From: Sedimentisphaerales bacterium
GTDB lineage: Bacteria > Planctomycetota > Phycisphaerae > Sedimentisphaerales > SM23-30
Direction: 5' to 3' (one strand)
DNA length: 64,000 nt
Assembly (NCBI GenBank): GCA_963666285.1
Contig: OY762711.1
Shown here: piece by piece, positions 57,069 to 63,110 of the stretch
Layout: the number at the start of each line of letters is the position of its first letter
How positions within the stretch are numbered: position 1 is the stretch's first letter
Notes under the pieces: model-generated
Seen by the model: only the letters and a program-made list of their open reading frames with translations
Told to the model about the DNA's origin: nothing
The model's database searches: none
Program-made: the position numbers and the translations under genes

Positions 57069-57863
57069 ATGAGAAAACTTTTTTTGACAATTTTAATTGT
57101 ACTATATTTTAGTGCAAATTCTTCAGCTAACATCACTTATGTGAGTGATTCGGTTTTTGGGGAAGATTCAATTATAAGTCAGAAGGAAGTGTCTGATAAA
57201 TTTGGTGTAGATGATGAATTTCTTTACCCCCACAGTTTATCAGTTACTTCATTGTTTCCTGGAAATAATCTAAATGTTTATTTAGAAAGAGTTACCGCCG
57301 GTTCTGATTGTGTTGAATTTGGTAGTGCTGCGGTTCCATTTAATTATGGCAGTGTGAATAGAATATATGACATAAGTAAGGATTTGCTTATGTTTGGTGA
57401 TTCTGCTTATGTAAAAGCAGAAGAAGTGTTATATCTTTCGAAGAATGAAATAAGCCATAAAAGATTTCAACTTTCTGCAGGGCCGGGTGCATTGGCATTA
57501 TTTATTACTGGTATTGCATGTTATTTTGTACTTGTGAACATTAAGTGGATATTCTCTGCTATCGCTTTTGGTCTCATGTTTGGGATTACAGGTGTTAAGC
57601 GTGTTCCTTATTATTTGCGATCATGCTATGGCGAGTTTGCCGGTAAAGTTTTGAATAAAAATGCAGTATTTTCAGGTTTAGTATTTGAAGGTGTCGTGCA
57701 TAGTATTCATTCAGTTGAAACAGGTTTTGCCGGGCTATTGAAAAAAATAGCTTCAAAATCGGGTTTTATTGGGAATGGAAATTCAAGAAATCAAGATAAT
57801 AATAATCTTAATTGGTATGAGATACTGACGCGTCAAATGTTCGTCATTGGTGCGTCTTTTTAA
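57069..57863 (+). CDS. Hypothetical exported membrane protein with an internal PEP-CTERM-like motif
   Basis: Signal peptide; LSAGPGALALFITG followed by a second hydrophobic helix and a tail of about 85 aa. Confidence 0.6.
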   Translation: MRKLFLTILIVLYFSANSSANITYVSDSVFGEDSIISQKEVSDKFGVDDEFLYPHSLSVTSLFPGNNLNVYLERVTAGSDCVEFGSAAVPFNYGSVNRIYDISKDLLMFGDSAYVKAEEVLYLSKNEISHKRFQLSAGPGALALFITGIACYFVLVNIKWIFSAIAFGLMFGITGVKRVPYYLRSCYGEFAGKVLNKNAVFSGLVFEGVVHSIHSVETGFAGLLKKIASKSGFIGNGNSRNQDNNNLNWYEILTRQMFVIGASF

Positions 57864-58195
57864 TGCGCTTTGAAAAGTTAATATTGAATAAAGGAGAATT
57901 GTTATGCCTGAAAAGGGGTATCTTAGAAATAATTTTCATGGATATAGCCAGGTTTGTTATTTCTAAATGTCAGGCATCAGGCTGCTTCCGACTGGCAGTG
58001 ATATAGAAGCATATTTTTTAAAAAAGAATATGCTTGATAGATTTAGAAGAGAAAGAGAATAAATAAATTGAACCAATCAGGTTTTCCTGAGTCATTTATT
58101 GAGTTTATTGAGTTTTTCAAACTTAATATATAAGGTCGGCAACTTTCTTTTCTTTAGCTTTTGTTGCTGTTGAGATTTTAGAGCTACAAAAGAAA
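57864..58195 (+). ncRNA. Candidate structured 5' leader, copy 1
   Basis: Blocks TTTGAAAAGTTAATA, AGGCTGCTTCCGACTGGCAGT, GGTCGGCAA and CTTTTGT..ACAAAAG are shared in order with 60398-60680. Confidence 0.55.
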
Positions 58196-58294
58196 AAATA
58201 TAACGTTTCGGAATATAATTTGTGTCCTTTTAATTCTCAAAACGAGTGTTTTGGGAGAAAACAATTTATTGATTTTATTAAAGGAGATTTTATT

Positions 58295-58930
58295 ATGAGG
58301 AAGTTTTTAATTTTGGCAATGATATTTGCCGTAAGCACTGTAGCAAGTGCCAGTTTTACTTACACTTATAGTGAATTGTCAAGCTTGGTATTTACCGATC
58401 AGGCGTTATCTCTCACAGGTTTTGATCTGAAAACAAGTGCGGATCTAGCTCCTTTAGTAGGTAGTAGTGCTCCAACGTATCAAGACGATACAGCAATGAC
58501 TGGCCAGTATGGTTATTATTCTGGCCTCCTTGACAATGGTTCGACATCAGACCCTGACGCGCAATATGCTACAATTGGTACTAATGTAACTGTGGCCGAT
58601 TCATTATTCACATTGAGTGTTTTCAATGATAATGATGATCTTTGGGGTTACATGCTTTATGCGACTGATGGCACAACTTTAGTTAAAAATGCTGATTTTG
58701 TGTGGGTTGCTGGAAATGGAACAACTACTGTCCCTTCTCCAGGTACTGTACTTACCCTTGATCTTTCATCTTTTGCGGTAAATGCTAATGTAGAGATAGG
58801 TCTTGCAATTGCAGCAGGCGCTGATTCCGATGTATTCCATACATCTATGACTGTTCCAGCTCCAGGTGCGATTCTTCTTGCGGGTATTGGCACTAGTCTT
58901 GTTGGATTAGTTCGTCGTCGTACACTGTAA
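58295..58930 (+). CDS. PEP-CTERM-like (VPAPGA) surface protein, family A copy 1
   Basis: ATG at 58295 after AAGGAG; signal peptide; C-terminal VPAPGA-TM-RRR; 211 aa, no Cys. Confidence 0.88.
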   Translation: MRKFLILAMIFAVSTVASASFTYTYSELSSLVFTDQALSLTGFDLKTSADLAPLVGSSAPTYQDDTAMTGQYGYYSGLLDNGSTSDPDAQYATIGTNVTVADSLFTLSVFNDNDDLWGYMLYATDGTTLVKNADFVWVAGNGTTTVPSPGTVLTLDLSSFAVNANVEIGLAIAAGADSDVFHTSMTVPAPGAILLAGIGTSLVGLVRRRTL

Positions 58931-59048
58931 TTTTGTTTTATTTAGTGGGGTGTTTTTCATCTCGCTCTCGATTTTTTTAAATTTCTTTATATATAGTATT
59001 TTATGCTATTTAATTTAGAAATTTTGTGTATTTTAAGGAGAAATAGTT

Positions 59049-59771
59049 ATGAAAAAACTATTACTTATATTGTTAATACTATTTCCCGTACTGGCGACTA
59101 ATGCAGGACTGGACTATAAATTAGGTGATACGTTTCAGGTTATTATTGAAGGGCCAAACTATGATGGTCTTCCTTATAAGGTTGATGATCTTAGAGATGG
59201 TCTAACTGGAATAGATTTTGAGACATTTTGCGTTGAGAGCCTGTCTGGTTCTGACGAACTTTATTGGCCAGGTAGAACCTATTGGGCGACAATTGATAAT
59301 TCTGTTTATTATTCACCTGATCCTGATGGAGTTGTTTATCTGACAGATGATACTCGCAAATTGTATGCAGCTTTTGTTAATGGTTATGATTATACCGGCA
59401 ACGGATATAGTTACAATGCTTTACAAACAGCAATCTGGTATTCTTTGTCAGGTAATAATGATGATAATGCATTAGATGATCCATACGACAAGGTTGCTGA
59501 TACTAATTTAGCATATCAAACCTATTTTGATAACTTGCTTAATAGTATTTCGTCATTTACAACCGGCTATGAACGTGTGAAGGTATTAAATATCTGGGGA
59601 CCTGCTTCTATCAGTGTGACAGGAGCAGCGGATGAATACATATATGATGTAAATCCAGATTTATTTGATCGTCAATCACAACTTGTAATGACGGTTCCAG
59701 CTCCTGGTGCAATATTGTTGGCAGGTGTTGGGACAGCTTTTGTCGGTATTATTCGCCGCCGTTCAATGTGA
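59049..59771 (+). CDS. PEP-CTERM-like (VPAPGA) surface protein, family B copy 1, putative thioester domain
   Basis: Signal peptide; TFCVE, LQTAIW, RQSQL; VPAPGA-TM-RRR. Confidence 0.85.
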   Translation: MKKLLLILLILFPVLATNAGLDYKLGDTFQVIIEGPNYDGLPYKVDDLRDGLTGIDFETFCVESLSGSDELYWPGRTYWATIDNSVYYSPDPDGVVYLTDDTRKLYAAFVNGYDYTGNGYSYNALQTAIWYSLSGNNDDNALDDPYDKVADTNLAYQTYFDNLLNSISSFTTGYERVKVLNIWGPASISVTGAADEYIYDVNPDLFDRQSQLVMTVPAPGAILLAGVGTAFVGIIRRRSM

Positions 59772-60264
59772 GCCTAATAAAATAGTTTTCATATTGAATA
59801 AATAAGTTTTTTTGGAAATGAAGATTTGATTTTGAGACTGATGCACTGTATCAGTCTCTTTTTTTTCGGTATGATTTTAAATTTATATATGGGTTGCGAT
59901 GGTTTAAATCGTAAGCCGATGGTAAGTATATTAGGGCGATGTACGGTAGATAAGGAGAGGTATTGTGTAAGTATGGTTGGCTCTGGAAAAGGGGTGGTAT
60001 GCAGATAAAATACTGTAATTGAATAAGAAATGTTTTGAAAATATAATATATAGCAATAGTATTTCTGAATTTCCGCTTAAATGGGTATGTCAAGTCTGGA
60101 TAGTTTATGATATATTTAACGATTATTTAAGTCGTAGATATTCAAAATAGTCAAAATTTTGCCGATAATTTAGGCAATGTGTAGTGGTTGTATAATTTGC
60201 TAATTATTTCAAAATAGATTTTTTTTTTTTTTTTAGCTTTTGCAAAGTGAAACTGATTTTATCT

Positions 60265-60293
60265 TTGACATGTTCTTTCTTTTTTTATATTAT
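60265..60293 (+). promoter_or_regulatory. Sigma-70 promoter for the second VPAPGA unit
   Basis: TTGACA-17 nt-TATTAT, implying a leader of about 455 nt before ATG 60755. Confidence 0.7.
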
Positions 60294-60397
60294 CTACTAA
60301 GCTTAAATACTAAAAATAGTGTTTCGGCTTTATATTGGCTTTGGAGTATGGAGAAAAAGAGAATTCCCTCCTTAATTACTCCCAAATCAGTAAATAG

Positions 60398-60680
60398 TTT
60401 TATTTGACAAGTAAATATATTAATAGTCTGTTCGAGGTTAACTTAAGATATACTTTTGCCATGAAATAAAATTTCTGGTTTGTCTTAACTGCCAAACAAC
60501 GGGCAAGGCTGCTTCCGGCTGGCGGTCAAGGGATTCGGGCATACAAACTGATGTTTATGTTGTATATATTTAGAACGAGACATGCCTGACAAAAAATTAG
60601 TAATATTTTTATTGTTAGTCGGCAAGTTTCTTTTATTAAGCTTTTGTATAAATATCACATAGTTGATAGAAACAAAAGAG
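60398..60680 (+). ncRNA. Candidate structured 5' leader, copy 2
   Basis: TTTGACAAGTAAATA, AGGCTGCTTCCGGCTGGCGGT, AGTCGGCAA, CTTTTGT..ACAAAAG. Confidence 0.55.
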
Positions 60681-60754: not shown

Positions 60755-61390
60755 ATGAAGAAATTTTTAGTTTTAGCAATGGTTTTTGCTATGAGTGCAG
60801 TGGCTAGTGCAAGCTTCACTTATACTTATAGTGAATTATCGAGTCTTGTATATACTGACCAGGAATTATCCTTGACTGGTTATGATCTAAAACAAAGTGC
60901 AGATCTTACACCATTGGTTGGTAGTTCTGCTCCCTTGTATTTAGATGATACAAAAATGACAGGTCAATATGGATATTTTGCGGGTCTACTTGACAATGGT
61001 TCTCAAAGTGATCCTGATGCACAGTATGCTACAATTGGAACTACAGTAACAGTAGCAGATTCTGTATTTACACTCAACATTTCTAATGATAATGATGATC
61101 TTTGGGGTTACATGTTGTATGCGACAGATGGTTCAACGATAGTTAAAAGCACTGATTTTGTTTGGATTGCTGCTAATGGAACTGATACAGTCCCTTCTCC
61201 AAGTGCAGTATTAACACTTGATCTAAGTTCTTTCACATTAGGTGATAGCGTAGAGATAGGTGTTGCAATTGCTGCAGGTGCTGATTCTGACGTGTTCCAT
61301 AGCTCATTTACAGTTCCAGCTCCAGGTGCTATTGTTCTATCTGGTATCGGTACAGCTTTGGTTGGTTTAGTTCGTCGTCGTAGCCTTTAA
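60755..61390 (+). CDS. PEP-CTERM-like (VPAPGA) surface protein, family A copy 2
   Basis: Ungapped paralogue of 58295..58930 (42 differences in 211 aa by hand count, about 80% identical). Confidence 0.9.
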   Translation: MKKFLVLAMVFAMSAVASASFTYTYSELSSLVYTDQELSLTGYDLKQSADLTPLVGSSAPLYLDDTKMTGQYGYFAGLLDNGSQSDPDAQYATIGTTVTVADSVFTLNISNDNDDLWGYMLYATDGSTIVKSTDFVWIAANGTDTVPSPSAVLTLDLSSFTLGDSVEIGVAIAAGADSDVFHSSFTVPAPGAIVLSGIGTALVGLVRRRSL

Positions 61391-61451: not shown

Positions 61452-61487
61452 AGACAGGATGCACTTAGTGTATTCCTGTCTTTTTTT
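61452..61487 (+). terminator. Intrinsic terminator between A2 and B2
   Basis: AGACAGGATGCAC-tta-GTGTATTCCTGTCT followed by a T-run. Confidence 0.75.
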
Positions 61488-61528
61488 AAAAATTAGAGTA
61501 TTTAAGAATAATTATTGAGGAGAGAGAA

Positions 61529-62200
61529 ATGAAGAAGTTGTTAATACTAATATTGGTATTTTCGTTTGGGAGTATAGTCAACGCAAATTATGATCTTAAA
61601 GTCAAGATGCATACGACAACTCCGTATACTGCACAAATATTAGAGAGTAATATAGACGAAAGTACGATTGCTGGATTAGGTGTACCAACTCATACATCTG
61701 ATTCATTTTATACATTTTGTGTAGAGCAGGGTAGATATTATAATAACCATGGTATATATTATGCCTCTATTGATGATGTTGTATTAGATGGTGGTCAATA
61801 TGACTATGATAACAATGGTTATGCAGAGTTAGACCTGGTTGTTAAGAAACTATATGCCGCATATATCAATGAAGGCGGTTTGTCTTCATATGATATTAGT
61901 GGTAGTGAATTACAGAATGCAATCTGGGGATATATGTATGATCCAGATGCCGCATGGCGTATTTCTGATGATGTAGAAGCTTTTGTTGCTCGGACTGACT
62001 TTGACGAGCTATCCGAAGGGTATATGAATGTTAAAGTAATGAACTTATGGAGTAACTATAATTCAGATACCGGAATATTATATGGAGACAAGCAGTCCCA
62101 GCTGATTATGTTTGCTCCTGCGGTACCAGCTCCAGGTGCTGTGATACTAGCAGGATTGGGTACAAGTCTGGTGGGGCTTATTCGCCGTAGAACTTTATAG
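61529..62200 (+). CDS. PEP-CTERM-like (VPAPGA) surface protein, family B copy 2, putative thioester domain
   Basis: TFCVE, LQNAIW, KQSQL; VPAPGA-TM-RRR. Confidence 0.85.
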   Translation: MKKLLILILVFSFGSIVNANYDLKVKMHTTTPYTAQILESNIDESTIAGLGVPTHTSDSFYTFCVEQGRYYNNHGIYYASIDDVVLDGGQYDYDNNGYAELDLVVKKLYAAYINEGGLSSYDISGSELQNAIWGYMYDPDAAWRISDDVEAFVARTDFDELSEGYMNVKVMNLWSNYNSDTGILYGDKQSQLIMFAPAVPAPGAVILAGLGTSLVGLIRRRTL

Positions 62201-62237: not shown

Positions 62238-62266
62238 AACCGTCAGCAGCAGCTGGCGGTTTTTTT
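62238..62266 (+). terminator. Intrinsic terminator
   Basis: AACCGTCAGC-agca-GCTGGCGGTT then TTTTT. Confidence 0.75.
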
Positions 62267-62438
62267 ATGGTCAAAACAATAAATTCTCAAAAAAACATCT
62301 CTTTGATTTGCTCTCTGAATATTTAAATTGTACATTTTGCTACTGAATAACTTAGGGGAAACCATTCCCTGAAGTATTATTGAGCGTAGAATATAAAAAT
62401 AGAAAAAATAACGTCTTATAGAGATGGAGAGAGAAAAG

Positions 62439-63110
62439 ATGAAAAAAGGAATCATTTTGTTAGTATTATGTGCGCTGGCAATCCCAGCAATGGCGGGATT
62501 TGAACTTGGTCTGGTTAGTCTATCTAATCCAAATGGTGATGGCGGGCCATACAGTGTTGATGTCTATGTTGATGGTGAGTATGATTTTGATACTTTCTGT
62601 GTAGAGATGGATGACACTTTCAATCCTAATACTACATATTATGCTACTGTTGATGATCAAGTAATGTATACTCCAGGATGGGATACTGCAGGTAACCTGA
62701 CATCGCTGACAGATATTACCAAAAAGTTGTATTCAGCATATTTGAATGGGTCGCTGGGTAAAGGTCAAAAGGTAGGTTACTATTACGATATCCAGGAAGC
62801 TATCTGGCAGGCACAAGGCAGTGGTATTTTCAATATCCAGGACGCTGCTATTGCAGCAGCTGTATATGGTGATTTTACCGGGCTGGATATTTCGGGCTGG
62901 AACAATGTGAAGGTAATGAACCTTTGGAAGTACAGTTCATATAAAAGTGATGATTATTACGCATATAGTACAAGTTGTGACAAGGATTTTCAGTCTCAGC
63001 TAATTCGCTTGGGTAATGGAGAAACTGTTAATGTACCGGCTCCTGGTGCTGTATTGTTGGCAGGGATAGGTACAAGTATTGTTGGTATGATTCGTCGTCG
63101 TACTTTATAA
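62439..63110 (+). CDS. PEP-CTERM-like (VPAPGA) surface protein, family B copy 3, putative thioester domain
   Basis: Start at the second ATG (GGAG upstream); TFCVE, IQEAIW, FQSQL; VPAPGA-TM-RRR. Confidence 0.85.
   Translation: MKKGIILLVLCALAIPAMAGFELGLVSLSNPNGDGGPYSVDVYVDGEYDFDTFCVEMDDTFNPNTTYYATVDDQVMYTPGWDTAGNLTSLTDITKKLYSAYLNGSLGKGQKVGYYYDIQEAIWQAQGSGIFNIQDAAIAAAVYGDFTGLDISGWNNVKVMNLWKYSSYKSDDYYAYSTSCDKDFQSQLIRLGNGETVNVPAPGAVLLAGIGTSIVGMIRRRTL

Follow-up and report, generated by a model that had tools for sequence, protein, structure and literature searches.

A conserved structured RNA element in and behind leader reading frames ahead of PEP-CTERM-type genes in one Sedimentisphaerales genus, a candidate antiterminator

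Attenuators of the trp and his type make terminator formation depend on the position of the ribosome on a leader open reading frame (ORF), and LoaP, RfaH and UpxY exemplify antitermination by NusG paralogues. Processive antiterminators that consist of RNA only are rare; examples are EAR (eps-associated RNA), which has a pseudoknot, and put of phages. The EAR of Bacillus subtilis has been put forward as an antiterminator that acts on several distal intrinsic terminators (Irnov and Winkler, 2010, as presented in passages of PMC7858274). Here, we describe an RNA element that occurs twice in a 64,000-nucleotide stretch of contig OY762711.1 from Sedimentisphaerales bacterium (GCA_963666285.1; the whole stretch is called the window), ahead of the PEP-CTERM-type surface-protein genes A1 (58295-58930, 211 aa, 80% identical to A2) and A2 (60755-61390). 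All leader, element and gene features located in the window are on the + strand. We consider it possible, somewhat short of probable, that the element is an EAR-like antiterminator behind a translation-gated terminator, which would let RNA polymerase pass the hairpins between the surface-protein genes.

The leaders of A1 and A2 are otherwise unalignable and share ordered blocks, as had been noticed in an earlier reading of the window (the sequence-only reading). These blocks were confirmed in the sequence: a boxA-like 15-mer (57869 and 60403), a 21-mer (57979 and 60506) and RGTCGGCAA (58134 and 60617), together with stem arms at 58158-58192 (A1) and 60641-60678 (A2) and a hairpin at 57827-57856. 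The 21-mer has just these two copies in the 6.35-Mb genome at up to two mismatches. Its 19/21 match between the leaders was reached in none of 300 dinucleotide-shuffled pairs of both leaders, and the same was true of a 27/30 match (0/300). The 13/15 match of the boxA-like block appeared anywhere in the leaders in 183/300 shuffles and in register in 29/3000, so it is common anywhere and merely uncommon in register. The CTTTTGT..ACAAAAG stem had also been listed as a shared block; its sequence is not conserved in relatives.

Three more copies were found ahead of PEP-CTERM genes when PEP-CTERM loci were fetched from relatives, two in G273 and one in G297, which are genomes of the same genus as the genome of the window (G000). 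The G273 copies occupy the same place as those of the window, beside ffh/trmD, and in all five copies the element is upstream of related genes. A covariance model was built from the three relative copies alone. Its matches in the 64-kb window were the two window copies and nothing else (24.5 bits for A2 and 16.2 bits for A1, E 1.1e-4 and 0.014 over 98 kb), and against 43 control loci, mostly other PEP-CTERM neighbourhoods and with four noise-hit loci set aside, none was better than E 4.1. Searches of Rfam returned no match at the gathering threshold in the 64 kb, and at the E-value level the window and the relative loci gave noise only (E of about 1 or higher), none of it on the element, in agreement with the sequence-only reading, in which no known riboswitch had been recognized. 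With the three additional copies this supports its proposal of a new, structured and conserved cis element ahead of surface-protein genes, and sequence comparison indicates that the RNA motif is real and conserved and matches no known family.

In the predicted fold, a core stem of 6 bp closes a loop of 9 nt and is followed by a second helix and by a third one, which encloses a variable region; next come a strand that can pair with the core loop and a pyrimidine tract that is kept in 5/5 copies. The loop-complementary strand lies 90-166 nt downstream of the core loop across the five DNA copies. In copy 1 the core hairpin is at 57980-58000, with loop bases 57988-57993 complementary to 58134-58139, followed by the second helix (a GCAT..ATGC stem, 58007-58035) and the third helix (58037-58131; 58037-58043 with 58125-58131), and the distal strand (58134-58139) and pyrimidine tract occupy 58134-58155. 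In copy 2 the core hairpin is at 60507-60527, the second helix (60537-60587) and a shortened third helix (60586-60618) cover 60537-60618, and the distal strand (60617-60622) and tract cover 60617-60634. The loop/distal duplexes of A1 and A2 have 6 bp and -7.8 and -7.2 kcal/mol; the folding z-scores of the whole leaders are modest (-2.67 and -2.00). In an alignment fitted to the model (A7), 103/103 cells were paired and 6 of the 21 pairs had two-sided changes, two each in the core stem, the second helix and the third helix, while slid controls were 29-36% paired. On a plain MAFFT alignment the core stem had 29/30 cells paired and two two-sided pairs, a result equalled by 32/500 shuffles. Where two copies had given weak evidence of covariation, the three extra copies thus add two-sided changes, and the core stem holds on the plain alignment. 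The proposed pairing of loop CCGRCU with downstream RGUCGG was kept in all five copies, but with four invariant pairs and two one-sided changes. A pseudoknot is therefore compatible with the data and not proven.

The known range of the element is narrow, since it was seen in one Sedimentisphaerales genus. A strict 18-mer with one mismatch matched 36 of 301 genomes of the class, not above a reversed-pattern control, and its non-coding matches L012 and L013 were on reading unrelated to the element. A three-block pattern, the gaps of which excluded A2-like spacing, gave 22 matches in a species-genome collection, of which 3 were the known relative copies and 19 were without the full stem and tract; in metagenomes 0/27 matches were real. 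A looser two-block pattern matched 68 of 251 genomes of the order, which were judged to be background from the listed sequences and not each inspected. Model searches of 150 genomes of the order and 25 of the family returned G273 and G297 only, yet missed the copies of the window genome itself, so these searches are insensitive and absence beyond the genus is not shown. In 18 genomes of the family, neither the element nor a PEP-CTERM array was present in the regions beside ffh.

In 4/5 copies the element is placed within, or immediately behind, a leader ORF that is translated; A2 has no leader ORF. In G273 and G297 an ORF of 343-363 aa, a homologue of window ORF 57069-57863, contains the whole element in its 3' third, and an intergenic-only scan would overlook it there because it is inside an ORF. 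In A1 it follows the leader ORF instead of lying within. The element is thus not simply a 5' untranslated region, and this leader context had been missed in the sequence-only reading. The leader ORF of the window (57069-57863, 264 aa) has a signal-peptide-like N-terminus, an internal hydrophobic segment and a GFAGLLK motif, has no RGPP, and ends in the U-tract of a terminator-like hairpin, T0. Its AGPG and hydrophobic segment (57474-57545) align with the LPAxPG-TM-RDRR segment of the RGPP-type leaders described below. The GFAGLLK codons (57723-57743) show protein-level conservation, with synonymous codon changes among four DNA copies. The leader stop overlaps the ATG of a 47-codon ORF (57863-58006), which runs across the core hairpin and is in the frame of the relatives (stop-free in 54/3000 shuffles).

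In total, 12 window-type leader proteins were collected (10 from a profile search, P0002 and P0012), and in 4/4 window-type DNA loci the leader is directly upstream of PEP-CTERM genes. The localisation signals of these proteins, a hydrophobic N-terminus and an internal segment, were read from alignments. The likeness of the internal segment to the PEP-CTERM sorting signal is by eye, and HHalign against PEP-CTERM cargo was not significant (3.4% probability for the window type, on the signal peptide only; 6.0% for the RGPP type, aligned on the sorting helix). In eight long window-type leaders the core is translated as GRxRLA, and among them the 3' block is read in three frames (5, 1 and 2 proteins). 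P0002 reads the G273 frame, so the shifted frame of G297 alone could be a one-base assembly error; the third frame is read by P0006 and P0008, and frame variation is thus independent of the G297 shift. The frame of the relatives through the element is open (5-16/3000 shuffles were as open, and the other frames carry 3-13 stops). Substitutions per codon position over the element were 9/7/5, 11/12/11 and 11/11/11, without codon-position bias, and codon changes were 1-2 synonymous against 11-18 non-synonymous. A protein-coding explanation of the blocks was rejected on this evenness and the three-frame reading; over the element, the substitution pattern indicates that selection acts on the nucleotides and not on the encoded amino acids.

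Two small ORFs were also seen at the window copies. The A1 leader contains a strong Shine-Dalgarno (SD) sequence (57890-57896) and a 20-codon ORF (57904-57966), the start of which is predicted to pair with 57970-57977 and a counterpart of which was not seen in the other copies. In A2, a 26-codon hydrophobic ORF (60582-60662) crosses the distal strand in the frame of G297, and may be due to chance in AT-rich DNA. Contigs from a single RNA sequencing run cover parts of A1 and of B, the gene behind it, of a related strain, and not the leader.

It is very improbable, in our estimate, that the window copies are eroded remnants of a decaying duplicate, or an mRNA-stability structure, kept by descent or for nuclease protection and without regulation. 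The window copies are without the helices that the relatives hold inside the third helix, and their low model scores would fit such decay. Against it, three blocks survive in two otherwise unalignable leaders at a level that the shuffles did not reach, with pairing kept, and one low-depth strain contig has six differences, all outside the core and the distal strand. The short type of leader found in the window moreover recurs in three other proteins, one of them with the same ASF ending.

T0 (57827-57861) is a terminator-like hairpin with a U-tract inside the leader ORF, and its counterpart passes the same test in 3/3 relative copies. All 4/4 leader-ORF copies have it within the ORF, at 140-155 nt from the core on the upstream side, with -10.3 to -17.1 kcal/mol; similar sites were found in 3/250 random in-ORF windows. 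The sequence-only reading had placed a hairpin before the boxA-like block of both copies. Both hairpins are present, but that of A1 is terminator-like and inside the last codons of the 264-aa ORF, and that of A2 (60343-60382) has no U-tract. A2 accordingly fails the T0 test; it has no leader ORF, and a strong promoter-like site of the sigma-70 type at 60265-60293, which ranked first among 47 sites in 7.2 kb (11/12 match, spacer of 17 nt), marks the predicted start of its leader.

With 12 nt as the threshold for the distance between stop codon and terminator, 311 of the 345 predicted gene-end terminators start late, more than 12 nt after the stop. Short distances serve as a proxy for uncoupled transcription (in passages of the review PMC7858274), and the count fits coupled transcription and translation in this genome. 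By this proxy, a ribosome on the leader ORF could mask T0.

A metabolite- or ion-sensing riboswitch, in which the invariant loop and the long-range pairing would form a binding pocket controlling the downstream genes, had been one half of the earlier proposal and is distinctly unlikely. The invariant loop, the distant partner and the variable inserts do resemble aptamers, and the position upstream of related genes in every copy would suit such a switch. However, the sole shared terminator, T0, lies upstream of the core, which therefore cannot control it as an aptamer would. A terminator-like site behind the core was present in 1/4 copies scored (G273b; none in G273a, A1 or A2), with no terminator shared among these behind the core, and the pairing that would sequester the SD is no better than that of many other windows. 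Further, no Rfam family matched, the distribution is very narrow, and in the relatives a ribosome would run through the fold. The other half of that proposal, an antitermination leader, is the best reading on other grounds, namely the terminators inside the operon.

Five genes stand in a row in the window, and the products of all of them (5/5) end in a VPAPG motif followed by a hydrophobic helix and then a basic tail. A1 is followed by gene B (59049-59771), behind which lies a terminator-like hairpin (59834-59866), and A2 by genes C (61529-62200) and D (62439-63110). Internal terminator-like hairpins are located between A2 and C (61453-61488) and between C and D (62238-62269); from the latter up to gene D the scan showed no promoter-like site on the + strand. 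PF07589 scored 16.1 and 15.7 bits on window genes, under its cut-off of 20.7, and matches to PEP-CTERM subfamilies of NCBIfam were also below cut-off. Each of four genomes, the window genome included, has two exosortases, and a PEP-CTERM regular expression found 60 genes in the window genome. Terminator-like hairpins were predicted at 4/6 internal junctions behind the element versus 1/29 in arrays without it, the genome background at same-strand junctions being 76/500. Internal terminators behind the element are what an EAR-like processive antiterminator would require.

On the antitermination reading, a ribosome trailing the polymerase on the leader ORF would mask T0; when translation of the membrane-targeted leader lagged, T0 would form and the operon would be off. 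Polymerase that had passed T0 would transcribe the pseudoknot and become resistant to later terminators. In copy A2 the gate would have been lost, with neither leader ORF nor U-tract, and the device kept behind its own promoter.

Several observations weigh against this reading. Two of the six internal junctions, including that from A1 to B, have no terminator by the rule used. One of five other tandem PEP-CTERM junctions in this genome has a terminator without the element, as does a G273 pair (L070) outside the junction count, so internal terminators may be a habit of the genus, with undetected promoters. Since the five DNA copies come from three related genomes, the counts lack independence, and a Fisher p of 0.0014 is too strong a statement of the difference. 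A2 is without the gate altogether, and no arrest motif that would slow the ribosome is known in the window-type leader. As to the fold, the loop-distal helix has no two-sided change, two third-helix changes in the fitted alignment depend on how A2 was aligned, and the third helix offers another partner to an AAAG that precedes the distal strand. When A2 was left unconstrained, it preferred an alternative fold in which the loop-distal helix is extended and the core stem is open. Finally, the A1 score falls within the genome-wide noise (15.8-19.6 bits), and the A1 assignment therefore also rests on position and on the exact blocks.

A switch at the level of translation, or a protein-binding site, is unlikely but has its own support. 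Here the fold would set the pyrimidine tract against the ribosome-binding site or first codons of the first PEP-CTERM gene, and a finishing ribosome or a protein would open it in a SecM-like manner. All three relative ORFs stop 27-54 nt past the distal strand, the tract is conserved in every copy, and minimum-energy folds of the 3' part pair the tract with the start region in A1, A2 and G297; the ancestral RGPP leaders likely act in this way (from parts of PMC10987492). The anti-SD model proved weak, since 7-31 of 79 upstream windows did at least as well as the tract/SD duplexes (-5.3 to -7.3 kcal/mol). In A1 the tract is beyond the end of any ORF, and T0 and the internal terminators would be left unexplained.

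Beyond its own family, the window-type profile also matched leaders elsewhere in the order, which stand immediately before PEP-CTERM arrays. HHalign joins the window-type and RGPP-type leaders in a region that spans the hydrophobic segment and GLL motif (93.9%, E 1.6e-7). Among 15 complete leaders of other genera, a count that leaves out one leader truncated at a contig end, 9 had RGPP, 2 HGPP, 1 RSPP and 3 none of these at the end, so that 12/15 carry a RAPP-like C-terminal motif; no such motif, RGPP included, was present in the 12 window-type leaders. In the class sample this family was found in this order only (9/43 order genomes against 0/257 others). A database search gave 428 leader proteins (E <= 1e-5), and all 120 of the 120 listed end in RGPP or HGPP, at a median of 3 residues from the end, a count that is biased because the query profile contained the motif. 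No NCBIfam family matched, and no leader relative was found in viral contigs. Membrane-targeted leader ORFs ending FSPAFIF..L.RGPP upstream of PEP-CTERM arrays include L244, L248, L261-L265, L268 and P0013-P0132.

Judged from these alignments, the window leader shares ancestry with a family of leaders that is found across the order and as a rule has RGPP at its end. RGPP is a demonstrated arrest core in other proteins (parts of PMC12992588 and PMC10987492), and the large unnamed RGPP leader family is likely an arrest-peptide system in its own right. PEP-CTERM is absent from the main texts of both papers and from the supplement files of PMC12992588 searched (all but one), and in open-access and bioRxiv text no papers were found that connect PEP-CTERM genes to arrest peptides, to riboswitches or other RNA motifs, or to this order. 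RGPP and the RNA have so far been mutually exclusive: RGPP is absent from the window-type leaders, the core's reading from the best 120 RGPP-type matches, and the RNA from seven other-genus leader loci, where the RNA model, run with filters off on eight leader-search loci including these seven, gave a best E of 0.53. Related bacteria likely carry a ribosome-stalling peptide where this genus has the RNA.

A swap within one regulatory gene is a rather doubtful account of these leaders. A leader monitoring the export of PEP-CTERM cargo would have lost RGPP, and its coding tail would have become the carrier of a ribosome-gated terminator and a pseudoknotted processive antiterminator, with control moving from translation to transcription; the RNA of A2 would then have become free-standing. 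It is decidedly improbable that the RNA instead replaced RGPP as a ribosome roadblock, with the leader still monitoring export or sorting. The mutual exclusion would suit this too, and so would the frame kept open through the element and the coupled ORF that A1 keeps across the core. However, A2 retains the core without an ORF over it, the coupled ORF of A1 ends 6-7 nt beyond the core hairpin, and four short window-type leaders, including that of the window, stop 28-40 codons past the GLL motif.

The boxA-like blocks of the window (57865-57883 and 60399-60417) match 10/14 and 11/14 positions of this genome's own rRNA boxA, as taken from the leader of the 23S gene and those of both 16S genes; the second copy is without the C of CTTT. 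Matches of at least 10/14 occur at 0.72 per kb of strand. In 3/3 relative copies no such block is at that position. The boxA-like block is not part of the conserved element, which it had been thought to define. Any role that it has may be confined to untranslated leaders, on the basis of one genome. In the two copies that are not fully translated it may add protection from Rho, which would be the weakest step of the proposed mechanism.

The genome has rho and nusB. A second Rho-like gene (G000:C1:1463841-1464959; 439 bits, under the TIGR00767 cut-off) is present in all three genomes. A second NusG-family gene (183 aa; G000:C1:249132, which is L202, and L200 and L201) precedes a gene for a membrane protein, and in two of the genomes a sugar-transferase-like gene is divergent from it. 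The genome's other boxA-like sites were considered as a regulon and dismissed: three are beside transposase-like ORFs and two more share their flanks, and these 15-mers (G000:C1:745747, 1411070, 1420017, 1579280 and 2617235) are probably ends of insertion sequences. Exact copies of the rRNA boxA 14-mer away from located rRNA genes are at G000:C1:6150241, about 100-160 nt upstream of a prmC-like ORF (named from its translation), and at 3246261. Among the rRNA genes (G000:C1:1183650, 1451093 and about 3851000), those for 16S lie apart from the 23S gene, and the latter has a promoter-like site and a boxA of its own. Nine tRNA genes are clustered within 3 kb (G000:C1:5226832-5229866). A second ATP-synthase-alpha-like gene has 80 displayed bases identical between two species (G000:C1:4861346-4861460 and G273:C1:770028-770142), which suggests recent transfer or shared contamination.

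If the antitermination reading is true, the element would be a second bacterial RNA-only antiterminator and, such antiterminators being rare, would give a useful comparison for how RNA modifies polymerase. The locus also offers a series of forms, namely the RGPP leader, the long leader with embedded RNA, the short leader with the RNA behind it and the RNA alone, so that it can be tested how a structured cis RNA arose within coding sequence. Even with the mechanism wrong, a new RNA motif would stand.

Compared with known systems, the element shares different features with each. The arrest-peptide leaders with RAPP or RGPP (SecM, ApdA, ApdP, the RQH family and CruR; parts of PMC10987492 and PMC12992588) also are membrane-targeted leader ORFs directly upstream of the regulated genes, and order-wide homologues of the window leader end in RGPP or HGPP (120/120 listed). 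In contrast, the window type has no RAPP-like motif (0/12) and has T0 and the RNA instead, and the genes that would be regulated here are clients of export and not export machinery. As in trp- and his-type attenuators, formation of T0 would depend on the position of the ribosome on the leader ORF; however, the leader here has 250-360 codons and is membrane-targeted, the terminator is inside the ORF, and the large conserved fold follows the terminator instead of preceding it. Likeness to the boxA/Nus system of rrn operons lies in the 10-11/14 match of both window copies to the genome's own rRNA boxA at a similar offset and in the presence of nusB and rho, but the block is missing at the same position in 3/3 relative copies. 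Likeness to LoaP, RfaH and UpxY lies in the second NusG-family gene of the 3/3 element-carrying genomes, a gene that is unlinked to the PEP-CTERM operons. From EAR the element differs in its phylum and in the lack of an Rfam match, and thus of EAR homology; its place within or after a translated leader ORF that has a terminator-like hairpin of its own is a further difference, and antitermination is here a prediction from sequence. Like EAR, it is a cis RNA within an operon for surface material (parts of PMC7858274), and intrinsic terminator-like sites are predicted inside the operon downstream of it.

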